From contig JBGANV010000001.1 in NCBI GenBank assembly GCA_044222185.1, positions 1,568,001 to 1,632,000 of the forward strand: a stretch of 64,000 nucleotides of DNA, given 5' to 3'. This document shows, piece by piece, positions 52,437 through 64,000 of this stretch. The notes below the pieces were generated by a model. That model saw only the letters and a list, made by a program, of their open reading frames with translations. It did not search any database and was not told the origin of the DNA. Positions within the stretch are counted from its first letter, which is position 1; every line of letters begins with the position of its first letter. A program made the position numbers and the translations under genes. Source of the stretch: Planctomycetota bacterium (GTDB taxonomy: Bacteria; Planctomycetota; GCA-002687715; CAIWVZ01).

Positions 52437-52809
52437 CCAAGACGTCTCCGTCCGGTGTGCGCCTGGCCTCGCGTCCACGCCGACCGCCGCGAGGGCCGGG
52501 CGCGCGAACGCGCTCCGTGAGCCGATGACTGTCCTCCGCGGTGAGGTCCAGGCCGAAGACCTCCCGGAGCGCAGCGACTTGCTTCAACGTCGTCGCGGAG
52601 AACGGCGACTTCCCGTCCAGGGCATGGAGGACGATGCCCTCGAGGAGGTCACCGAGCGTAATCTCCTTCGCGTCCGCCAGCGCACGAAGCACCATGAGGA
52701 GACGCTTCTCCAGTCGCACTCCCGTCTGAACGCGCTCGATCTGGGTCGAACGCGCCCCGCCCGCACCCCTGCCAGGGCGCCCGCGAACGGAGGATGTGGC
52801 CTTCTGCAT
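52429..52809 (-). CDS. Small putative ribbon-helix-helix DNA-binding protein
   Basis: ERVQTGVRLEKRLL.VL.ALA....TLGDLLEGIVLHA (strand-helix-helix pattern); start moved to ATG 52809. Confidence 0.7.
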   Translation of the reverse strand: MQKATSSVRGRPGRGAGGARSTQIERVQTGVRLEKRLLMVLRALADAKEITLGDLLEGIVLHALDGKSPFSATTLKQVAALREVFGLDLTAEDSHRLTERVRAPGPRGGRRGREARRTPDGDVLDG

Positions 52810-52830
52810 GTACCACGGTACCAGTGTACC
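52810..52830. promoter_or_regulatory. Three GTACC direct repeats with 8-bp period; candidate operator
   Basis: GTACCacgGTACCagtGTACC directly abuts the start codon of the RHH-like gene. Confidence 0.5.
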
Positions 52831-53229
52831 GGGTGAACCCCAGATCGCGACGCACGATGGCCCGGCGGATGCGCATGGACGACGCGGGCCGCGCAACCGC
52901 CGCTGCCCGAGCCATCGCATCGCCAACGCTCGCCGAACCCGGACCATGAACCGAGAGGCTCGGCTCACAGGCGCACGTCGTCCCGTGTGCCGGACGGCGC
53001 TCCTCGTATGCGAGCATCGTTGGATGGCGGAGCCAAACCATGGCGAATGGAGCACGCTCCCCCGAGGTCGGCCTCCGCGTAACCGGCTACTGCAAGCCCG
53101 ACCGCGCAAACGGGTTTGCGATCCGGAACACTCCAATCCCCCGCCCCGTCGGGTCTGCGCGTGACGATCGACCCGGAAATGGCCTATAGGATGCGCACTC
53201 CCCTGATGGCCCTCCCGACGGAGCTCATC

Positions 53230-56200
53230 ATGCGACAGTCCTGCCTTCCCATAGTGCTGTTCACGTCCGCGGCAATGTTGGTGCCGCCCGTACGCGCGCA
53301 ACTCGAGCCGGCGCCGACGTTCACCACACCTCAAGCCGTGGGCATCCAATACGACATCGTCGCCTGTCGTATGCCGCTCCCTTCAACGCTTCCCGCGGAT
53401 TACCGGGACTGGTTTCCCGACGTGTTCAACTTCTCGATATTCGTTGGACCGGGCTCGGACCTGGTCGCCATCCACCCGGATGGGACCGAGACCGTCCTCG
53501 TCTCCGCGGGGAGCGTGCCGATACAGTCGGTCCCGGGAGGTGTGACGCGCACGTCCGCCAACGCGTCGATCGTGGATCCGCTCGTGTCCTTCGACGCGAA
53601 GTCGATCTACTTCGCGTTGTTCGAGGACCCCATCGCTCGCCATTTCCAGCGGAAGCTGCCGATCAAGCCGGCCTTCATCTTCCGTTACAGCCTCACGACC
53701 GGGGCGGTGACCCAACTCACGTTCGACGATCAGGTCGACGTCTCCGACCAGTTTCGCCAGGTGGCGCCGCCGTACGCGAAACTCGACGTCGCTCCGGTGG
53801 AACTCGCGGATGGCCGCATCCTTTTCCTCTCCAACCGCGCGAACGTGATGGAGCCGGGGAACGAGAAGCCCGCGATGCGCTTCTACCGGATGCACGGTGA
53901 CGGGTCGAACGTCGAGCCAGTCGAGAACTTCACCCTCGGGTCGTGCCAGCACCCGATCATCCTCCGGGACGGTCGCATTGCGTGGACGCATCACCACCCC
54001 GTCGGACGCCGGAACATCAACGGCAACTTTCCGCTATTGGTCGCGAACCCGGACATGAGCGACATCAAGACCATGGCGGGCGACCACTACTACAACACCG
54101 CGTTCCACTTCATCTCGCAGCTATCCAACGGCGACTTCGTCTCGAACAGCTACTACCAGCAGAACAACTTCGGCCACGGGATGATCGTCAGGTTTCCGCT
54201 GGTCAGCGGGCAAGGGTTCAACCCGGTCAGCGACATCGCGTCATCGAGCGCGCATTTCGAACGTGTATCGCAGACGACGGCGGTCCCGTGGCCGCTCGGC
54301 AATCTGAACGACGACCACGCCGCGCGCCTTCGCGGTGGAAGCCAGACGGAGCGCGTCGGCAAGGTGACGATGCCGTCCGGAGCACCAGGCGGCGACATGC
54401 TGATGGTCTGGAGCCCCGGTCCGGTCAACAACCTGAACCGCCCCGTCTCGGGCTTCCCGCACATGCACGTGGCCTATGCCCCGGGCGGGAGCACCCCGAC
54501 GTGGTCGGCCATGTCCATCCTCAAATGGAGTGCCTCGTACCACTACATGTACCCGAAGGCGGTCGTGCCTTACGCGGCGATCCACGGCGTCGCAAAGCCG
54601 ACGCTGATCCCAGACACGACGAACAGCGGATCGATTGCCGCCCTCCCGGCAGGATCCGCATTTGCAACGACCGGCACCTCGTCCGTGTACAACCGCGAGA
54701 GCCGGTGGCCCAATCCCTACGACGACGCGGTCGACCCCAACATCGTCAACAACCTCCTCTACTCGTCCACCTTGTTCGTCGTCGGTCAGGACACCATTCG
54801 GTTCCCGAACTCCCGCATCCACGCCGCGCAGGTCGTCGCCGACATGTCCCACGTCTTCGGGAACAACTCCTGGTATCAGCCGCTGGCCGGTCGATACCGA
54901 TCGCACAACAACGGGACCCAGGTCTGGGGAATCCTCGGCGAGATCCCATTGCGGAAGTTCGCGCCGAACGGTTCGCCGATTCTCGACGCGCAGGGTAATC
55001 CCGACACGTCGTACGAGGTGCGGATCCCCGCGGATGTCCCCTTCCACAATCGCGTCATCGACGTCGACGGGATCACGCTGACCTCGGAGACGACCTGGCA
55101 CAGTGCCCGTCCCGGCGAACGGAAGAACAACTGCGGCGGCTGTCACGCGCACTCGATCAACACGCAGCCATTGGACTTCGGCACGACCGCAGCCGGGCAG
55201 GCGGGTTACACGGTGACGGACTTCGCTCTGCAAACGCCGGTCGTGAGCCGCGATCCCCAGAACCAACCGTCCGTCCTGATCAAGCCTGGACGCGCCTGGG
55301 TCGTGGAGTATTGGCAGGACGTCCAACCGATCCTGACGGCGCGGTGCGTCGGCTGCCACAACTCGCCGGCGAGCCTCGACCTTCGCGCCAACGCGTCGCC
55401 GCCTCCGTGGGACAGCCTCGCGTTCACGAACACGAGCGGCTACCCGATCCTCTATGGCGCCCACCAACCGACGAAATACGTCCGCAAGAACGCCGCGAGC
55501 CAGAGCCTCCTCGTGTGGAAGGCCTATGGCTCGCGGCTCGACGGTCGCAGCGACGGCAACGGGCGCCCTGGCGACATCCCCTTCGGCCCGGCGCACGCAC
55601 CGACGATCACTTTCGACGAGAAGCGAACGATCGCCGCATGGGTGGATCTCGGGTGTCAGGTCGACGTCAATCCCGCCTCGGCCGACGAGAGCGATCCCTT
55701 CGACGACCAGATGAAACCCTCGCTCGCAATCTCGGGGATCACGCGTGGCAAGGTGACGACGGCACCGACGTCGATCACCGTGAGTGGCTACGACCTCCAC
55801 TCCGGAATCGCGCCCGCATCGCTCGAAATTCGCATCGGCAGCTGGACCGCGACGAACCTGGCGGCGGGAACCACGATTTCGAACGGCAGCGTGCACACGA
55901 TCCCTTTGCCTGCGCTGGCGACCGGCCAGCTCCACAAGATCCACGTGCGCGTCGCGGACGTCGCCGGGAATCGATCCCGCGAGATCCTGGACGTCATGGT
56001 CCTGAGCCCTGCAGCTCTCGTCACCGTCGGCTCGGGAAGCCCTGGGACCGCCGGCCAGGTACCCACGCTCTCCGGAAGCACGCTCCCGCGTGTCGGCGAG
56101 CAGGCGTTCGAACTCGTCGTGGCCAACACGGTGCCGAATACCCCCACGATCATCTGGTCTTCGGCGGCTCTGGCGAACCCGCCATTCCAGCTCCTGCCCA

Positions 56201-56418
56201 ATGCGTTCGTGTATCTGTCCTCGCTCGACACGTTCTCGTTCGGAGTCACGGATTCCACGGGCAACTACCGGGCGGGGCTGCCGATCCCCAACGACCCGGG
56301 CCTGAACGGGGTCACGCTGTACTTCCAGTCACTCGTCTTCGACCCGGGCGGGCAGCAGCTCATTCCCGGCGTCACCGGAGCACTCACGCCCGGGCTCGCC
56401 CTGACCGTCGGCGGGTGA
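53230..56418 (+). CDS. Exported hydrazine-synthase-alpha-like protein with two CXXCH heme motifs and a C-terminal beta domain
   Basis: Signal peptide; propeller-like N-terminal half (DP.VSFDAK, DGRILFLSNR); IPADVPF...D.DG...W..ARPGE..NCGGCH (55132-55146); VQPIL.ARCVGCH (55345-55359); IAAWVDLG. Confidence 0.8.
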   Translation: MRQSCLPIVLFTSAAMLVPPVRAQLEPAPTFTTPQAVGIQYDIVACRMPLPSTLPADYRDWFPDVFNFSIFVGPGSDLVAIHPDGTETVLVSAGSVPIQSVPGGVTRTSANASIVDPLVSFDAKSIYFALFEDPIARHFQRKLPIKPAFIFRYSLTTGAVTQLTFDDQVDVSDQFRQVAPPYAKLDVAPVELADGRILFLSNRANVMEPGNEKPAMRFYRMHGDGSNVEPVENFTLGSCQHPIILRDGRIAWTHHHPVGRRNINGNFPLLVANPDMSDIKTMAGDHYYNTAFHFISQLSNGDFVSNSYYQQNNFGHGMIVRFPLVSGQGFNPVSDIASSSAHFERVSQTTAVPWPLGNLNDDHAARLRGGSQTERVGKVTMPSGAPGGDMLMVWSPGPVNNLNRPVSGFPHMHVAYAPGGSTPTWSAMSILKWSASYHYMYPKAVVPYAAIHGVAKPTLIPDTTNSGSIAALPAGSAFATTGTSSVYNRESRWPNPYDDAVDPNIVNNLLYSSTLFVVGQDTIRFPNSRIHAAQVVADMSHVFGNNSWYQPLAGRYRSHNNGTQVWGILGEIPLRKFAPNGSPILDAQGNPDTSYEVRIPADVPFHNRVIDVDGITLTSETTWHSARPGERKNNCGGCHAHSINTQPLDFGTTAAGQAGYTVTDFALQTPVVSRDPQNQPSVLIKPGRAWVVEYWQDVQPILTARCVGCHNSPASLDLRANASPPPWDSLAFTNTSGYPILYGAHQPTKYVRKNAASQSLLVWKAYGSRLDGRSDGNGRPGDIPFGPAHAPTITFDEKRTIAAWVDLGCQVDVNPASADESDPFDDQMKPSLAISGITRGKVTTAPTSITVSGYDLHSGIAPASLEIRIGSWTATNLAAGTTISNGSVHTIPLPALATGQLHKIHVRVADVAGNRSREILDVMVLSPAALVTVGSGSPGTAGQVPTLSGSTLPRVGEQAFELVVANTVPNTPTIIWSSAALANPPFQLLPNAFVYLSSLDTFSFGVTDSTGNYRAGLPIPNDPGLNGVTLYFQSLVFDPGGQQLIPGVTGALTPGLALTVGG

Positions 56419-56662
56419 CCCGACCGGACCGACAGTGACGGCGGTCACGGTCTGCGAAATCCCAGCCGCGGGCCGCGACCGCAACGCCTGGTGAGGCGTC
56501 GATCGAAACCGTCCTCGTTCCGCGCACCGCACACGCCGTCGCGAGCCCGTCGGGTGCCACCGACGAGCAGCGGCCGATCGAGTACGATGCGCCCCTGCAC
56601 TCGAACCCGAGGCGGGGTCGTACTCCGCCTGCCCGCGAATGCACAGCACCGTGAGCAAGCCG

Positions 56663-57631
56663 ATGGTGATGCCGAAACCCAGGAGAGCGTCGCGAGTCAG
56701 CGAGCGGAGGGCCGAGTCGAAGCCAGCGCGAAACGCACGCGCGAAGTCGGCGTCGCCCGCCGCGGCGACGCCCGGCTCCGGCACCTCTGCCACGGCGCTC
56801 ATCGACGCGCGGATCCGTTCACTGGGCGATTGGCGCGGCGAGACTCTCGCCGAAGTCCGGCGGATCATCCGCGGAGCGGACCCGCAGATCGTTGAGGAGT
56901 GGAAGTGGATGGGCACGCCCGTGTGGTCTCTCGATGGCAACATCTGCACGGGTGAGACGTACAAGGCGGTCGTCAAGCTCACCTTCGTTCGCGGCGCCGC
57001 CCTGAAGGACCCGAAGAAGCTCTTCAACTCCAGCCTGGAAGGAAACACGCGCCGCGCAATCGACATTCGCGAGGGCGAGGTCGTCGACGCAGAGGCGCTG
57101 ACGCAGCTCATCCGCGCGGCCGTCGCTGCAAATCAGGAGGCGACGGTCGGCAAACCCACGGTGCGGAGGGCGAAGTCCCGCGCCGCGCCCGCGCGAGACC
57201 CCGTCGCCCGCAAGGGGTCACCCCGGCCGAAGGCGTCCGTCGTCCTGCTCGCGGGCGGCAACCCTCAAGTGGCAAAGGCAGACGGCGACGCTCCCGTACA
57301 GGCGTACATCGCCGCGATTCCAGGTTGGAAGCGCGGGATCGGTGAGCGCATCGACGCCCTCGTCACGAGCCAGGTGCCCGCAGTGCGAAAAGCCGTGAAG
57401 TGGAACTCGCCCTTCTACGGAGTCGAGGGTCAGGGGTGGTTCCTCTCGTTCCACGTCTTCACCCGCTACGTGAAAGCGACGTTCTTCCGAGGCACGTCGC
57501 TGAAGCCCGCGCCGCCGGGAGGCACCACGAAGGAAGCGCGCTGGATCGACATCCACGAGGATGACTTCGATGACGCGCAGATGAAGGCCTGGGTGAAGCA
57601 AGCCGCCCGAGTGCCCGGCTGGATGGCTTGA
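56663..57631 (+). CDS. Tandem DUF1801 (YdhG-like) domain protein
   Basis: Domain 1 has EEWKW.GTPVW...KLTF.RGA.L.DP..LFN; domain 2 has KAVKWNSPFYG...FFRG.SL.P; basic linker between them. Confidence 0.85.
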   Translation: MVMPKPRRASRVSERRAESKPARNARAKSASPAAATPGSGTSATALIDARIRSLGDWRGETLAEVRRIIRGADPQIVEEWKWMGTPVWSLDGNICTGETYKAVVKLTFVRGAALKDPKKLFNSSLEGNTRRAIDIREGEVVDAEALTQLIRAAVAANQEATVGKPTVRRAKSRAAPARDPVARKGSPRPKASVVLLAGGNPQVAKADGDAPVQAYIAAIPGWKRGIGERIDALVTSQVPAVRKAVKWNSPFYGVEGQGWFLSFHVFTRYVKATFFRGTSLKPAPPGGTTKEARWIDIHEDDFDDAQMKAWVKQAARVPGWMA

Positions 57632-57684
57632 TCCGTCGGCGGTCCATCCGGTGCCTCCTCCCGCGATGCACGTCGCGAGTCCCC

Positions 57685-58893
57685 ATGCGTGACCTTGCGC
57701 CCACGGCACACCGAGCCTGGGCGCGGATCGTGCTCATCCTCCTCGCCGTGAGCGGCGTCGACGGCTGCTCGACCCTCGCCGCACGCCGTGAGAACTCGGA
57801 CTCGCGGGTCGAGCCGTCAGGCAATCCGTCACCGCTCGGGCGAGAAGCGGCGGTCTTGGAACTCGTCATCGACAACCCGTTCCGCCTCGCGTTCGACGTC
57901 GTCGAGGTCTCCGGCGACGACGACGTCAGGATCGTCTCCCAGGAGTCGAGCCGACGCTGGCGCCAGCCGATGCGCGCAGGGCTGTACGAGGTCGTCGCCC
58001 ACGGCGGCAGTCGCTCGTTCGGCCTGCCAGCGCCGCTTCTGAGGGGCGTCGTCCCTGACGGGCGCCTGACGATCACGATCCCCGCGGCCCAGCCGGAAGA
58101 CGAGACGTGGGCGTGGATCCCCCGTGGCGTTTCGGTGATGGGAGACACGATCGGAGTCGGTCAGGAGGACGAACGGCCTGCCCACCTCGTCGAGCTGCCC
58201 GATTTCTGGATCGGACGAACCGAGGTCACCAACGCAGACTACGTCCGCTTCCTGAATGATCCCGCGGTGAGCGTCGACGAGCGCTGGCTGGCGTTCGACA
58301 GCCTCAAGTGCCTCGTGAGGCAGGACCAAGCGACCCGACGCTGGACGACCGACTCCCCCGCCTTCCCCGTCGTCACCGTGAGCCTCTCGGGCGCCGAGGC
58401 GTACTGCCGGTGGATGACGAGTCGGACGTCGGTACCCCACCGACTGCCGACCGAGGCCGAGTGGGAGAAGGCGGCTCGTGGTCCGCGATCGACGGTCTAC
58501 GACTATGGGTCCACCTTCCGCCGCTTCGCCGCGAACCAGCAGAGCGGTCGCCTCCGCGAAGTGAACGCCTACGGGCTCCACGGGTTCGGTGTGGCGGACC
58601 TGACGGGCAACGCCTTCGAGTGGGTCGCCGACGACTACGATCCCGACGCCTACGCCGGGCGCGACTCCCGTTTCACGTCGAGTCCGTCGATCCGACACGC
58701 ATCGAGCGCAGCCGACACCCGGTACCATGTCCTGCGCGGTGGATCGTTCGTTCTCGACGGCATGTACCTCAGAAACAGCTTCCGGATGAGGCAACGACCA
58801 TCGGTCCGCACGGAGGATTTCGGCTTCCGTGTCGTTCGAGAGTCCAGACCCGACGCCGAGGTGATCACGTCATGCGAATCACGACCTGGCTGA
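57685..58893 (+). CDS. FGE-sulfatase (SUMF1/PvdO/NirV-like) domain protein, probable lipoprotein
   Basis: DERPAH.V, TEVTN.DY, PVV.VS...AEAYC.W, RLPTEAEWEKAARG, GNAFEW, RGGSF, GFR; N-terminal hydrophobic helix then Cys. Confidence 0.88.
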   Translation: MRDLAPTAHRAWARIVLILLAVSGVDGCSTLAARRENSDSRVEPSGNPSPLGREAAVLELVIDNPFRLAFDVVEVSGDDDVRIVSQESSRRWRQPMRAGLYEVVAHGGSRSFGLPAPLLRGVVPDGRLTITIPAAQPEDETWAWIPRGVSVMGDTIGVGQEDERPAHLVELPDFWIGRTEVTNADYVRFLNDPAVSVDERWLAFDSLKCLVRQDQATRRWTTDSPAFPVVTVSLSGAEAYCRWMTSRTSVPHRLPTEAEWEKAARGPRSTVYDYGSTFRRFAANQQSGRLREVNAYGLHGFGVADLTGNAFEWVADDYDPDAYAGRDSRFTSSPSIRHASSAADTRYHVLRGGSFVLDGMYLRNSFRMRQRPSVRTEDFGFRVVRESRPDAEVITSCESRPG

Positions 58894-59900
58894 GCGCGAC
58901 GCTCCTGCTCGCCGCACTCCCTGCCACCGCACAGATGGAGAAGAGGAACGACGAGCTTTACGGGAAGGACTTCACGAAGACGAATCCAATGGTCGGCGCG
59001 CAGGTGCCCGACCTCGCCCTCTGCGATCTGGATGGACGACCCTGGGCCCTTTCGACGCTGAAGGGATCGACGGTCGTCATCATCAAGTGCGGCTTCACCT
59101 GACCGCCGTTCCGCCGCGCTGCCGCAGGTCTGCGCAGCCTTCACAAGCAGTACACGAACGTCGTGTTCCTCGCGATCGAACAGCGAGAGCCGCACGCCGG
59201 GCAGCTCGCATTTGCCGACGTCGAGCAGCCCTCCTCCTACGCCGAGCGTCAGGCACTCGCCGTTCGGTGCCGTGACGAATTCCAGATCCCGTTCCGGATC
59301 CTCGTCGACGGCATGGACGACGCGAGCCGCGCGCTGTTCGGCGACCTCCCGAGCCCGGCGTTCATCATCGAATCGACCGGACGGATCGCCGCCAAGCTTC
59401 CCTGGTCGGACCCGGAGCTGATCGCGGACGGACTCAACGCGGTCGAGCGTGCGGCCGAGTCCCGCTCCACCCAGCCGTCGGACATGAACGAGGTGATCGC
59501 GCTCGCGCGGAAACGCATGTCCGTGAAGGCGCACGCGGAGGCTCGCATCCTCCTGACGAACGCGATCCGCTCGATGCAGCACCTCTCACCGGCGACGCTC
59601 GCGGAGGCGCACCTCGCACTCGCATCCGCATGCCGGGGCGAGGGCAACACGGGTGACGCGACCACGTCGGCGACCGAGGCCGAGGTTCTGGCTCGCAAAG
59701 CCTGGTCGTCGAATCCGGCTCGGCTGGTTGCCGCACTGTGCGAGCTCGCAGCGCTGGAGCCGCCGGGCCCGTCCGCCGACGCTCGCTGGGCTGCGGCCGC
59801 CGCAGCGCTGGAATTCCGCGCGCCCATTTCCCAACGCACCTGGATCGAAGCTCACTCAGGCGGTGCGTCCACGCGAGCTGCGTCGCGACCGACCCGATGA
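58872..59900 (+). CDS. Exported deiodinase-like (thioredoxin-fold) selenoprotein with Sec at codon 77 and a helical/TPR-like C-terminus
   Basis: ORFs ending at 59102 and starting at 59163 are in the same frame, separated by one TGA (59100-59102). Read-through gives KCGFT-U-PPFRR...AIEQREPH...VDGMDD...PAFII, 342 aa. SECIS-like hairpin follows; selA is nearby. Confidence 0.88.
59118..59138 (+). promoter_or_regulatory. Bacterial SECIS element
   Basis: GCTG-c-CGCAGGTCTGCG-CAGC hairpin starting 15 nt after the TGA; apical GCAGGTCTGC is the same as the E. coli fdhF SECIS tip. Confidence 0.8.
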
Positions 59901-60070
59901 CCGCCCGCGCCGCAACGCTGCGGCCCGATGACACGTCCCGTTCGGCACGCTGATCGCACGATGCGCGGCACGCATCGGAGGCGCGATCGCCCGTTACGAG
60001 GGCCGTACGCCGCGCCGGCCGCTGATGGTCGCAGGCGCGAACGAGCGTCGACTCTCACGCGCGTCGACGT

Positions 60071-60367
60071 TCACTTCACATGGAAGTTCTTGTAGGCAAG
60101 AACGACGTGGACGATGGCTTGCAGCGAGATGAGCGCCCCTGCGATCGCACCGGCTACGGGCTTGTAGGAGTACAAGAGCCACGAGATGCCAATCTCCGCC
60201 CCGATGATGAGGGTTCCCTGGATGAAGACGCGGAGGCCCGATGGGTGTTTCCCGAACAGCGGGTTCCGCTCCTCGCCGCCCTTTCCGAGCGCGTAGATGG
60301 TGGAGATGCCATCGAACGTTGCGGCGACGCCCAGGGCGATCGAGGCGATGACAAGAAATACGAACAT
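60071..60367 (-). CDS. Small membrane protein (DUF5658-like)
   Basis: GGAGG RBS before ATG 60367; D..ST..AL..GG.E.NPL motif; three hydrophobic helices. Confidence 0.7.
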   Translation of the reverse strand: MFVFLVIASIALGVAATFDGISTIYALGKGGEERNPLFGKHPSGLRVFIQGTLIIGAEIGISWLLYSYKPVAGAIAGALISLQAIVHVVLAYKNFHVK

Positions 60368-61178
60368 GAGTCCTCCGATGGTTCCCAGCGTCAGCCGCGT
60401 CGGCACCGATGCCGCGCCGACCGCGCTGAACGCAACGATTCCACGGCCGCAGGGAGTGCCTCACATGATGCACGAGTTCGGGACCGGGAGGGTGCCCACG
60501 CTGCCCCGACGCCGACTTTCTGGTCGCCCAACGAGTCCTCAGCATTCACGGCGAGAGATTGGGGCTGCGACGACGCCGTGTCCGAGACGTCGCCTTCTGG
60601 TGCCTCGACCGAGGATTCTCTCCCGACCTGCTGCCGTCACGCACGGCTGACGGTTCGGGCGCGGACGCGGCGGAAGACGCCGAAGTGCGCCAGGATGCGG
60701 TCAACCACCCCAACGGCCTCGAAGGCGGCGTCACGGCGAGCCTTGCGCCGGGCAAGGGAGAGCTTCGACCCCGACCTCGCAACCCGCCACGGCGCGCAGG
60801 GGACCTGACCGGACACCGCGCGTGGCGCGACCGACGTCGCTTGGCGAAGGATCGAGCCGACTCCGAAGGCGGTCGAGCCGCGTCTGGATGCCATGTCGTG
60901 CCCGAGGACGTCGCGCGCGACTCCCAGCGGTCATTCTGCGGCAGCGTTCAGGGTGCGGGACACAGCTGCGCGACATGGTTCCGGCCCTCCCTCGCTCAGA
61001 AACGCCTCGCCTCGACTCGCCGGTCGATCGGCGGTCAGGCAGCCGGAAGAGCTGAACAGGTTCACGATCGCCCGCCGCGATCGCGATCAACGTCAACCAC
61101 CGATGTCTCGCTTATTCCTGCCAGATCGCGCAGACCGGCTCACGGCCGACGCCAGCGGTTAGGCTCTACACCCGCCGC

Positions 61179-61736
61179 ATGGGACTACTGACCTTCAGCA
61201 TCAACGTCACTCTGGACGGCTGCGTCGATCACCAGGAAGGCGTCGCCGACGACGAAACGCATGCCTTCTTCACCCGCCTCATGGACGAGAGCGGCGCCAT
61301 GCTCTGGGGCCGCGTCACGTACGAGATGATGGAGAGCTACTGGCCGGCGGTCGCTCGCGGGGACGTCGAGGCACCGTCGACGATGCGTGATTGGGCAGTC
61401 AAGCTGGAGACGAAGCCGAAGTACGTGGTTTCGACGACGCGACGGAACTTCCCATGGACCAACAGCCACCACGTCGCCGGCAACCTGCACGCGGGCGTGC
61501 AGAGCCTGAAGGACGCGACTGCGTCCGGCGTGCTCCTCGGTAGCGGCAAGCTCGCGGCCGAGTTGGACCGGCTGGATCTGATCGACGAGTACAAGTTCCT
61601 CGTGCACCCCAGGATCGCCGGTCACGGCCCGACACTGTACGGCGGAGGGCTCCCCAGCACGCGACGGCTCGATCTGGTCTCGGCGAGACCCCTCCGCAAC
61701 GGCGCGGTCGCCATGCACTACCGACGCGCGCGTTGA
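61179..61736 (+). CDS. Dihydrofolate reductase / RibD C-terminal family protein
   Basis: INVTLDGC, LWGRVTYEMM..YW, KYVVS, GSG.LA..L...DLIDEY...HP...G.G..L. Confidence 0.9.
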   Translation: MGLLTFSINVTLDGCVDHQEGVADDETHAFFTRLMDESGAMLWGRVTYEMMESYWPAVARGDVEAPSTMRDWAVKLETKPKYVVSTTRRNFPWTNSHHVAGNLHAGVQSLKDATASGVLLGSGKLAAELDRLDLIDEYKFLVHPRIAGHGPTLYGGGLPSTRRLDLVSARPLRNGAVAMHYRRAR

Positions 61737-62016
61737 CCTCGACCCGCAAGCAGCCGCCGCTGCGCCTCGTACCCGCTCCTGGAAGAAACGCATTCAAATT
61801 CCAGGGTGCGGAGGCGTGCGACATCGGGTTTCCGCCTGGTGGCCACCCGCTCAAGGCAGCGCGGTCAGTCCATCTTCATGCCAGACGAAACCGACGTCCG
61901 GTGTGCCGGTCGAACGAGCGGCACCAGATCGCGTGCTGCGCCGCTGGTCGCGCGCAGCATGCAGTTGACCCTCGCCCCAGAAGCTGGCAACGACCGTTCA
62001 AACTTGGGCTGACAAG

Positions 62017-62091
62017 TCGGGGCGGCGGGATTTGAACCCGCGACCTTCGGCTCCCAAAACCGACGCTCTAGCCAGGCTGAGCCACGCCCCG
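62017..62091 (-). tRNA. tRNA-Pro(TGG)
   Basis: Reverse complement CGGGGCGTGGCTCAGCCTGGCTAGAGCGTCGGTTTTGGGAGCCGAAGGTCGCGGGTTCAAATCCCGCCGCCCCGA folds as a cloverleaf; anticodon TGG; CCA not encoded. Confidence 0.95.
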
Positions 62092-62183
62092 AGGCGAACA
62101 GAACGGGCGGATTCTCCTCCGCGGCGACCGGTCGTGCAAGGCAGACTCGGCGAGCCGGAGGCCGAACCCCATCCGTCGATCGT

Positions 62184-62945
62184 TCAGTAGTAGGTCGGGA
62201 CGTAGCCGACGCCGAACTCGGACACCGGCATCCAGTCCTTGCCGCCGCTCGCGGTCTTTTCGAGGAGCGTGATACCAGGTCGCTCCGACTTGCGGAGACG
62301 GAAGCCGTTCATCGGGTTGACGCCCACGTACGAGACGAGGCGATCCTTCGTCGGAACCTTCGCGTCCTGCTGGAACGCGGTGACCGTCCACGTGCGTCCG
62401 CCGTCGGTCGTCTCGTAGAGGCTCTCCTTCTTGGGACCGGACGGCGACTCGGAGTAGCTGACGACGACCGATCCTTCGGTGTCGGACTTGAACGCAACCG
62501 AGTGGACGTCGGCGATGCGGACGCCATCCCCAGCTGGAAGAACATCCTCGACGAAGCGGTTGCCGCCGTCCTTCGTTCGGAAGATGACGGCACGGTGAAC
62601 GCCTTCGGGCGTGATCCGGCGAGCCCCGATCCAGCCGCGGATCCGGTCGGCGAAGAACAGTGAGTGGAAGCTCACGTTCTCGAGTTCGTGGATCTCGGAG
62701 CCGGCGCGGCGCCAGCGACCGCCGCCGTCCTCGGTGTGCAGCAACAGCCCGTCGTGGGCGCCGTCCGCCGTTCCGAGCGTGCCGACCGCCCAGATGTCGG
62801 TCAACGAGACGGCGTGGACCGCCTGGAGATCGACCCCGGTGTAGCGCTCGTGCGCCGGTGTCGGGACCTCCAGCTGCGGGCCTGAAGACTCGCACCCTGC
62901 CACCAACACCAAACCCATCGCGACCCAGAGGCTCGTTCGTCCCAC
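62184..62945 (-). CDS. Lipoprotein with BNR/Asp-box (Ycf48-like) repeats
   Basis: Lipobox VAGC; repeats HTEDGGGRW, RTKDGGNRF, ETTDGGRTW, KTASGGKDW. Confidence 0.85.
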   Translation of the reverse strand: MGRTSLWVAMGLVLVAGCESSGPQLEVPTPAHERYTGVDLQAVHAVSLTDIWAVGTLGTADGAHDGLLLHTEDGGGRWRRAGSEIHELENVSFHSLFFADRIRGWIGARRITPEGVHRAVIFRTKDGGNRFVEDVLPAGDGVRIADVHSVAFKSDTEGSVVVSYSESPSGPKKESLYETTDGGRTWTVTAFQQDAKVPTKDRLVSYVGVNPMNGFRLRKSERPGITLLEKTASGGKDWMPVSEFGVGYVPTYY

Positions 62946-63128
62946 GCTCGCGTTCCTTTCCCTTCAGCGCCCGGCGGGCACCAGTCCCGTCGGTCCCGCT
63001 CATTATCGAGTGCGGAGCGACCGCCGCTGCAATGACAGCGGGCGTGCCGCGGATTCCCAGCCGCCCCGAGGCGGGCCGGGGACCACGATCCGCTCACCGA
63101 ATGGCGGGGATGATATCCTCGGCGCGAT

Positions 63129-64000
63129 ATGGAATCCCGCCGCAAGCCCGACGCTGGTGCATCCGATGCCGATCGAGCGAACCTCCTGCGGCGCCTCCCA
63201 TCGATCCAGCAGCTTCTGGAACGGCCCGAGATCGAAGCCCAGGCACAGGTGCCCGGAAAGCGCGGCCTCGTCGTGATGTCGGCCCGAGAGGAGGTGGAGG
63301 CGTGCCGCCGCGCGATCCTCTCCGGCCGAGCCACCGAGGACGACGTATCGCTCGCGTCCGTGAGTGGTCGGCTCCTCCAACGCCTGAACCGCGACGGCCG
63401 CCCGCTGCCACGGGTCCTGAACGCCACGGGAGTCATCCTCCATTCCGGTCTCGGCCGGGCGCCGCTCGCACCGAGCGTGCTCGACACCCTTCGGAGCCAG
63501 GGTCCCTACTCGCTGTTGGAAGTCGACCGGGAGAGGGGGGAACGGCGAGCGCGCGACACACGCTGCGTCACGATGCTCAAGGCCCTCACCGGGGCCGAAG
63601 ACGGCCTCGTCGTGAACAACAACGCCGCCGCGACGGTTTGCATCCTCCATGCCCTCGCTCGCAAGCGTGAAGTGATCTGCTCACGCGGCGAGATGGTCGA
63701 GATCGGTGGATCGTTTCGGATTCCGGAGGTGATGGAGGCTTCCGGATGCGAACTCGTCTCCGTTGGCGCGACGAACAAGACACACATCGAGGACTACGCG
63801 CGCGCCATCGGGCCGAACACGGCGGCGTTGCTCGTCGTCCACACGAGCAACTACCGGATCGTCGGGTTCACCGAACGGCCCAGTTTGCGCGAGATCGCCG
63901 AGCTCGGGCACGCCCATGGACTCGTCGTCATCCACGACCTCGGATCGGGGTCGCTGCTTTCGCCGGAGGCGTTGGGGATCGGTGACGAGCCGCCAGTCTC
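63129..64000 (+). CDS. selA: L-seryl-tRNA(Sec) selenium transferase (N-terminal part; runs off the window end)
   Basis: Manual translation from ATG 63129: ..LRRLPSI..., VLNATGVILHSGLGRAPL, VVNNNAAA, SRGEMVEIGGSFRIPEVM, VGATNKTH, VHTSNYRIVGFT, DLGSG. Confidence 0.95.
   Translation, partial: MESRRKPDAGASDADRANLLRRLPSIQQLLERPEIEAQAQVPGKRGLVVMSAREEVEACRRAILSGRATEDDVSLASVSGRLLQRLNRDGRPLPRVLNATGVILHSGLGRAPLAPSVLDTLRSQGPYSLLEVDRERGERRARDTRCVTMLKALTGAEDGLVVNNNAAATVCILHALARKREVICSRGEMVEIGGSFRIPEVMEASGCELVSVGATNKTHIEDYARAIGPNTAALLVVHTSNYRIVGFTERPSLREIAELGHAHGLVVIHDLGSGSLLSPEALGIGDEPPV

Follow-up and report, generated by a model that had tools for sequence, protein, structure and literature searches.

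Bacterial deiodinase-like selenoproteins, which occur in selenocysteine (Sec, U) and cysteine forms, were described in 2005 by Zhang, Fomenko and Gladyshev (PMC1088965), and in the excerpts of that paper considered here their function is unassigned. Two reviews, one of 2022 (PMC9312934) and one of 2026 (PMC13188914), list deiodinase-like selenoproteins under PF00837 with the motif UxxC in the excerpts at hand. Since 2005, no substrate, partner or phenotype has been assigned to these bacterial proteins. Here we describe a gene of this kind, from a Planctomycetota bacterium, together with a partner gene that gives a first lead. The gene lies at positions 58872–59900 of a stretch of 64,000 nucleotides (nt) (assembly GCA_044222185.1, contig JBGANV010000001.1, positions 1,568,001 to 1,632,000), which we call the window. 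We consider it very nearly certain that this is a real, mis-annotated selenoprotein gene. Our full explanation, to which we give a probability of about 0.72, is that the product is a Sec-decoded, exported, deiodinase-like protein which forms a module with a partner having the fold of the formylglycine-generating enzyme (FGE), and that it works by single-selenolate chemistry. The gene and the codon on which this reading turns are the following.

58872–59900, plus strand: the whole selenoprotein gene, 342 codons plus stop, with TGA 59100–59102 very likely read as Sec
59100–59102, plus strand: the putative Sec codon TGA, residue 77, in the motif T-U-P-P-F-R-R; its column is shared by 12/12 loci, holds Cys in the relative P0012, and the TGA is kept in contigs of runs X2 and X5

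A single frame runs from the ATG at 58872, which has a GAGGTGA box 8–14 nt on its 5′ side, to the TGA stop at 59898–59900. The sole in-frame break is the TGA at 59100–59102, in the context KCGFT-U-PPFRR. The translation begins with MRITTWLSATLLLAALPATAQ, passes through that context and continues with AIEQREPH and VDGMDD...PAFII. An earlier note on this DNA had given the same start, end, internal TGA and motifs, and all of these coordinates and motifs are exact. It had also held that the gene is divided by the calling of open reading frames (ORFs), which is what we see, since a table-11 ORF listing gives 58308..59102 and 59163..59900 as separate pieces of the frame. Among database proteins, identity to the window product is found solely for a C-terminal ORF of 245 amino acids (P0002, NCBI source); therefore, the public annotation cuts the gene in two.

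The case for recoding begins with the conservation of the codon. A read-through search of 41 related genomes gave matches in 23, and the 12 best loci, from 12 genomes, were aligned. In all 12 orthologous loci the TGA occupies the same column, with an invariant Thr before it and Pro-Pro after it, and invariant residues are found on either side of it among the 10 orthologues of alignment A4. Since the protein is conserved across the TGA and the TGA column is common to 12 loci, the frame is more than chance. Of 401 genomes sampled from the phylum, 67 give a match at E<=1e-20. Among the 92 matches listed across the phylum, 86 have exactly one TGA, one has a TGA and a TAG, and five have none (87/92 with TGA, from a manual row count).

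Homologues with Cys aligned to the TGA, a check suggested in the earlier note, do exist. The relative closest to the window protein in the tree, P0012 (450 amino acids, 52% identity), has the Cys form FTCPMFRR. We surveyed the Sec column in 151 sequences, namely the best 150 representatives plus P0012. Of the 76 representatives reaching across it, Cys is found in 51, Ser in 20, Thr in three, Val in one and Ala in one; the other 75 sequences start after it. This beginning of 75/151 relatives past the Sec column is the signature of cut-off gene calls. Thus the family as a whole is truncated in current annotation: of the best 150 relatives in the database, half begin just past the Sec codon. In P0047 and P0063, the His of the E-x-H motif is also lost.

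The earlier note had named an assembly error as an alternative, and independent contigs speak against it. A contig of 2563 nt from run X2, which belongs to another study, covers 58600–60000 with 9/1401 differences, none of them at the TGA; four of the eight in-gene differences are synonymous, two of those upstream of the TGA. The contig of run X5 is identical over 59043–59225, a segment that spans the TGA. These checks of the TGA were made on assembled contigs (X2, X5) rather than on raw reads. DNA nearly identical to 58600–60000 is present in runs X1–X20, which are activated-sludge, sludge and bioreactor metagenomes of 11 studies; no RNA data set was among the runs listed.

The source genome, of 7.08 Mb in 16 contigs and 93.8% complete, has the machinery that Sec insertion calls for; selB, selC and selD, which the earlier note had proposed to look for, are all found. 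selB scores 330 bits with TIGR00475, over its cut-off; a search of the genome with the Pfam family SelB-wing_2, a weak probe, gave no match, and selB was then detected with TIGR00475. selD scores 371 bits and holds one TGA in its own reading frame. It lies at G000:C14:427704-428624 (L009) and is itself a selenoprotein gene, with the motif GGG-U-ACK. Aragorn places a tRNA-SeC at C1:1632625-1632719, just outside the window and about 80 nt or less after selA. The latter begins only 3.2 kb downstream of the selenoprotein gene and scores 487 bits as a whole with TIGR00474, and 303 bits for the part inside the window. A tRNA-Pro (TGG) lies between the two genes, at window 62016–62091 on the minus strand.

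63129–64000, plus strand: selA, L-seryl-tRNA(Sec) selenium transferase, continuing past the window end (G000:C1:1631186-1632719 including the tRNA-Sec); TIGR00474

For a bacterial selenocysteine insertion sequence (SECIS), the expected form is a stem-loop located just 3′ of the UGA, whose apical loop is small and includes a G, according to the excerpts at hand of PMC1088965. A hairpin with such a stem and with a GGUC loop is found at the proper place.

59118–59138, plus strand: SECIS-like hairpin GCUGC(C)GCA-GGUC-UGCGCAGC, found by folding, 18–38 nt past the U of the UGA

The helix aligned over the 12 loci is 82.1% paired, versus 25–55% for controls in which the partner strand was slid. Both sides change in 4/7 pairs, and the covariation score was reached by 0/500 shuffles. 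The GGUC apex is common to the window hairpin, the selD of the same genome and a paralogue on contig C11 (described below); the selD apex, GCAGGUCCUGC, is a near match to the window apex, GCAGGUCUGC. The Escherichia coli fdhF element likewise has the GGUC apex. An Rfam scan of 56000–64000 at E<=1 returned no SECIS family, only the tRNA-Pro and one sub-threshold small-RNA match. We propose that SelB would be recruited by the hairpin at 59118–59138. It is very likely, then, as judged from the DNA, that the TGA at 59100–59102 is decoded as Sec, and the UGA recoding put forward in the earlier note is supported by the Sec machinery, the conservation of the TGA, the Cys homologues and the SECIS-like hairpin.

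What kind of protein is it? The catalytic part can be delimited as follows.

58977–59459, plus strand: deiodinase-like thioredoxin-fold catalytic domain, residues 36–196, as predicted from VIA-align to Dio2/Dio3, the PDB profile search and AhpC-TSA (31.2 bits)

When a profile of 13 family members is compared with the PDB, mouse Dio3 (4tr3, E 2.4e-15) and Dio2 (9h48, E 2e-13) come at the top, the best thioredoxin-like entry having 1.5e-9, and the alignment to Dio2/Dio3 brings together the TCPPF as well as the two E-x-H residues, Glu and His. The AlphaFold model m2707d74fbdde, built from 47 sequences, has a predicted local distance difference test (pLDDT) score of 92.6 and a predicted TM-score of 0.88. 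In VIA-align, this model matches Dio2 9h48 with Z 20.3 (157 residues, root-mean-square deviation 2.4) and Dio3 4tr3 with Z 19.6 (160 residues), whereas ResA/TlpA-type chains have Z 18.3 or less over 133–136 residues. As for curated families, all 13 profile members match T4_deiodinase (PF00837) at E<=0.1, and 57/66 wider relatives are over its cut-off. The best NCBIfam model for the window protein is NF038285, "deiodinase family protein", with 67.6 bits versus a cut-off of 250 and coverage of model positions 174–323 of 347; the C-terminal half of this model is matched by 13/13 members of alignment A1. As modelled, the fold and the active-site motif are deiodinase-like, and the thioredoxin fold of deiodinase type that the earlier note had proposed agrees with the first ranks of Dio3 and Dio2 in the profile search and with the VIA-align scores of 19.6–20.3.

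At the active site, T76, U77, P78, P79 and F80 are invariant and are aligned to GSCTCPPF (4tr3) and GSATCPPF (9h48) in the β1–α1 turn. E106 and H108 are invariant in the clade and are aligned with Dio2 Glu160 and His162, at the edge of the Dio insertion. The residues of Dio2 named for catalysis or proton relay, in the excerpts at hand of PMC11592359, are Ser127, Thr129, Sec130, Tyr157, Glu160, His162 and His182. Among these, Thr129, Sec130, Glu160 and His162 are T76, U77, E106 and H108 in the window protein. Position +3 from Sec is an invariant Phe80, so there is no CxxC, and no Cys is invariant anywhere in the selenoprotein. The Cys at −4 to which the earlier note drew attention is present but peculiar to this genome, being unconserved; the Gly at −3 is present as well, and at this position the orthologues vary between Ser, Ala and Gly.

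The two ends of the protein lie outside the catalytic domain.

58872–58934, plus strand: predicted cleavable signal peptide, residues 1–21, by inspection (charged N-end, hydrophobic run, ATA before Q)
59484–59858, plus strand: helical-repeat C-terminal tail, residues 205–329, seven helices (DSSP and pLDDT about 97, model m2707d74fbdde)

The predicted mature end is QMEKR, with Q21, M22, E23 and R25 invariant in the 10 orthologues of A4, and the signal-peptide stretch is a low-confidence helix in the model. The export call was made by inspection of the N-terminus. It is plausible that the selenoprotein is exported via a cleavable signal peptide, as the earlier note had supposed, given a hydrophobic N-terminus that is followed by the invariant QMEKR. 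The tail of about 140 residues that the note had called helical or TPR-like is indeed helical, with seven helices in the model, but the TPR label does not stand, a Pfam scan of the tail having matched no repeat family, TPR included. Only part of the clade has the helical tail; four orthologues in alignment A1 have Lys/Pro-rich tails instead.

Directly upstream lies a conserved FGE-like gene that had been missed in the earlier note.

57685–58893, plus strand: partner gene, a predicted exported lipoprotein with an N-terminal β-sandwich and an FGE-sulfatase-fold domain (Pfam FGE-sulfatase, 157 bits)

The start at ATG 57685 is our choice, as the ORF listing gives TTG 57628. The N-terminus is hydrophobic and ends in a Cys (translation MRDLAPTAHRAWARIVLILLAVSGVDGC), and the stop overlaps the selenoprotein start by 22 nt. 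When the partner profile is compared with the FGE of Streptomyces coelicolor (6muj, "bound to copper"), Leu stands at both catalytic Cys positions (C-x-x-x-x-C after RGGS), and VLDGMYL is conserved in 10/10 partner orthologues. Since both catalytic Cys are Leu, the partner is not a working FGE. Its NCBIfam matches (EgtB, GldK, SenA, PvdO) are all partial and under the cut-offs. The AlphaFold model of the partner is poor, with a mean pLDDT of 62.8 and a C-terminal half under 50, and a Foldseek search with it (ToxD, EgtB, FGE, PvdO) merely restates the sequence result.

The pairing of the two genes is regular. In 10/10 loci (L012–L021) the partner orthologue runs up to the selenoprotein start or beyond it, and at L034 a partner orthologue is likewise upstream (403 bits with a custom hidden Markov model), so that the pairing is found in 11/12 loci. 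Among the 41 related genomes, the same 10 hold both orthologues (partner at E<=1e-60, one copy each), and the two are adjacent in each. In a tree built from 30/47 rows of alignment A5, with 17 C-terminal fragments left out, all 11 FGE-linked rows, together with P0012 and the locus L035, are set apart from the other rows by a branch whose support is 100/99. There is, in addition, a natural fusion: in P0087 (440 amino acids), residues 3–112 resemble the selenoprotein past the Sec (45% identity, E 2e-31) and residues 157–434 resemble the partner across an internal gap (32% identity, E 1e-44). A search for longer fusions of the catalytic domain (603–2000 amino acids) found none, which is weak evidence. 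As read from the DNA, the selenoprotein gene is translationally coupled to the upstream partner gene, and we hold it highly probable that the selenoprotein and the FGE-like protein are functionally coupled.

Two roles that might be imagined for the partner were considered and rejected. It would not be a resolving thiol donor, because no Cys is invariant in it. Nor would it be a true FGE with the selenoprotein as its reductant, because the catalytic Cys are missing.

We propose that the selenoprotein and the probably lipid-anchored FGE-fold protein are likely to make up a two-part extracytoplasmic module, in which the FGE-like lipoprotein would anchor the selenoprotein or present the substrate. 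The lone selenolate of Sec77, in a T-U-P-P-F motif that lacks a Cys at +3, would react with an electrophilic atom in the substrate, and Glu106 and His108 would help to protonate the leaving group. In the style of the deiodinases, the leading candidate for this atom would be a halogen, taken as X+, with peroxide oxygen a close second. The resulting Se-X or Se-OH would then be recycled by an outside thiol protein; an outside donor would be needed because neither the selenoprotein nor its partner keeps a conserved Cys. A fused Thioredoxin_7 domain is present in 6 of the 66 relatives scanned, and it could serve the recycling role in cis. We think it likely that there would be a physical or functional complex with the lipoprotein and a single-selenolate mechanism. 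The abstraction of halogen, proposed by analogy, is a tentative choice, and we would not wager on it. Unlikely, though worth stating, is that the pair may work at the cell membrane's outer face as a two-component machine of a previously undescribed kind, stripping X+ from organohalogens or halamines. If this were true, it would rank as the first dehalogenase of deiodinase type from a bacterium, and gene linkage and a natural fusion would have pointed out its substrate-binding subunit.

Several observations weigh against the explanation just given. The window protein has only 15.1 bits with T4_deiodinase versus a cut-off of 27, so the T4_deiodinase search proposed in the earlier note fails at the Pfam level, and just 6/12 clade members with DNA pass this cut-off (30.9–49.6 bits). 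Because of this score, we call the window protein deiodinase-like and not a curated T4_deiodinase member. The lead of the deiodinases over ResA-type folds is small, about 2 Z units, and in Foldseek, ordered by E-value, ResA leads and Dio3 is at rank 14. At the active site, an invariant Pro120 takes the place in this clade of His182, the second His of the Dio2 relay, and the window protein has Gly74 and Glu103 where Dio2 has Ser127 and Tyr157, although Ser and Tyr are kept in several orthologues. The 66 nt after the TGA (59100–59165) fold no better than shuffles (z 0.99), and therefore the hairpin case rests on covariation; moreover, the window hairpin forms only 4/7 pairs in the common register of the family, owing to a bulged C. 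As for the partner, no FGE-like gene is found in the 1.5 kb upstream at L035. The profiles behind the co-occurrence come from the same related genomes, so that it speaks of co-inheritance and is not a statistical test, while the fused form is one sequence on one 3.8-kb contig, its FGE-like domain having an internal gap. Finally, the fusions in relatives point several ways, to HMA, LTXXQ, Thioredoxin_7 and hydrolases.

The strongest competitor keeps the same gene and the same Sec and changes the chemistry. The protein would be of peroxiredoxin type, reducing H2O2 and organic or lipid hydroperoxides in the periplasm in the manner of a 1-Cys peroxiredoxin. AhpC-TSA (PF00578) is the sole Pfam family over its cut-off in the window protein (31.2 vs 26 bits), yet it is under the cut-off in all 11 other clade members scanned. 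Peroxiredoxins of the Bcp and AhpE types align with Z 16–17.6, but in the profile search every peroxiredoxin trails the deiodinases by more than 20 bits. A peroxiredoxin-like motif is described for the deiodinases themselves in the excerpts at hand of PMC11592359. A Cu/Zn superoxide dismutase gene downstream at one orthologous locus and the esterase and lipase fusions among relatives would also suit a peroxide-reducing role. However, the peroxiredoxin motif has its Thr at −3, while here the Thr is at −1 as in deiodinases. On balance we doubt a peroxiredoxin function, and of all the competing functions it is the one we would dismiss last.

Rather improbable, to our mind, is that the same gene encodes a TlpA/ResA-like thiol-disulfide or sulfenate reductase acting on a protein substrate, which could be the FGE-like partner or a client of that partner. 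A search of the PDB with the single sequence does have TlpA at its head (E 7e-4), its CxxC being aligned with Sec at the first Cys and Phe at the second, and both proteins are predicted to be exported, in keeping with such a role, as is the first place of ResA in Foldseek. Against this, the invariant Phe at +3 leaves no CxxC, neither the selenoprotein nor the partner has an invariant Cys, and deiodinases are well ahead at the profile level.

More remote still is a protein that is no enzyme at all, whose selenol would be a ligand for a soft metal (Cu, Hg) in Sco-like periplasmic metal handling. This would be in line with the relatives fused to HMA (L022, P0067, P0086), with LTXXQ/Metal_resist regions in 10/66 relatives scanned and with Sco proteins as weak PDB matches (E about 0.03). 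Yet none of these fusions belongs to the FGE-linked clade, deiodinases have the conserved E-x-H and T-U-P-P-F in common with this protein as signatures of catalysis, and the partner is without the copper-binding cysteines of FGE; a metal-binding role therefore seems to us very improbable. Last, that the TGA is a genuine stop codon, a lesion in a pseudogene or an artefact of assembly, leaving two separate ORFs or a dead gene, is close to refuted, for although standard ORF calling and public annotation read it as a stop and the local fold energy after it is unexceptional, it is present in 12/12 orthologous loci with protein conserved on both sides, it is kept in independent assemblies, the Sec machinery is complete and the hairpin covaries.

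The surroundings of the pair can be described briefly. Directly upstream of the FGE-like gene, at window 56639–57631 on the plus strand, is a protein with two DUF1801 domains, not seen conserved at the other loci, which have short flanks. Farther upstream, at window 53116–56418, also on the plus strand, an ORF of 1100 amino acids weakly matches the hydrazine synthase alpha middle domain (38 bits with Pfam; 57 bits with NCBIfam, far under the cut-off), and its product is probably a β-propeller protein of unassigned role. In the wider neighbourhood (FeoB, PurD, HAD, MFS, a sigma factor, RibD_C) no redox partner or reductant supply was seen, and no gene outside the pair was conserved among the loci examined, whose flanks are short. 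The Cu/Zn superoxide dismutase gene mentioned above lies downstream of the orthologue at L016 (G021:C50), in one genome only. A scan of 52500–61500 for promoters and terminators gave 0 promoters, with terminators at or under the shuffle expectation. Elsewhere in the genome, at G000:C11:134746-135171, there is a second deiodinase-like selenoprotein, which has EF-hand-like repeats ahead of GSFT-U-PPF and YIREAHA and is of the NF038285 type. Among the wider relatives (P0041–P0185), fusions to HMA, LTXXQ/Metal_resist, Thioredoxin_7, EF-hand, alpha/beta-hydrolase and GDSL-lipase domains occur.

A co-inherited, translationally coupled and once-fused neighbour that is enzyme-dead makes the question of the substrate approachable. 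In addition, the large exported deiodinase-like selenoproteome of the phylum bears on the selenium demand of wastewater and environmental Planctomycetota. In the open-access literature searched, no paper joins deiodinase-like proteins with an FGE partner. The same literature gave nothing on selenoprotein, Planctomycetota and SECIS together, and the terms deiodinase, Planctomycetes and selenocysteine gave only unrelated work.

How, then, does this protein compare with the systems already described? It resembles the bacterial deiodinase-like selenoproteins of 2005, as far as the excerpts at hand describe them, in having a UGA followed by a SECIS of bacterial type, in a thioredoxin fold akin to that of iodothyronine deiodinases, in occurring in both Sec and Cys forms and in having no assigned substrate. 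In contrast to the UxxC motif given in the excerpts of the two reviews, the window clade has U-P-P-F, with no Cys at +3. It differs from the catalogued deiodinase-like selenoproteins also in straddling the Pfam cut-off (6/12), in its signal peptide followed by QMEKR and in its linkage to an FGE-like lipoprotein. With NF038285 and the paralogue on contig C11, it shares predicted export, the motifs GS(F/Y)T-U-PPFR and RE(A/P)H and the hairpin with a GGUC apex; unlike NF038285, which joins an EF-hand region to a deiodinase domain, the window protein has no EF-hand region, belongs to a separate, strongly supported clade and has a different partner gene.

The catalytic cores of mouse Dio2 and Dio3 (9h48, 4tr3) have in common with it the T-Sec-P-P-F, the Glu and His of E-x-H and a loop-D-like insertion. 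The identity, however, is 18–21%, Pro replaces His182, Ser127 and Tyr157 are not kept in the window protein, and its loop-D is shorter. Whereas Dio2 and Dio3 have an N-terminal membrane anchor, the window protein has a predicted cleavable signal peptide; its helical tail is a further addition. Bacteria are not expected to contain thyroid hormones. TlpA, ResA and CcmG are likewise exported proteins of thioredoxin fold with the nucleophile at the same position, but the window protein has Phe at +3 in place of their second Cys, and they align over a shorter length (133–136 vs 157–160 residues) and with lower profile scores.

The partner is like pFGE/SUMF2, PvdO and PorK/GldK in having the FGE-sulfatase fold, in being exported or lipid-anchored (as predicted here) and in the loss of the copper-binding Cys pair; it is unlike them in scoring under the cut-offs of those families, in having its own N-terminal β-sandwich and in being paired with a selenoprotein. 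Thus, relative to the sources found, what is new is the U-P-P-F-R-R centre together with the QMEKR mature end, the obligate linkage to a cysteine-less FGE-fold lipoprotein, and the fused form.

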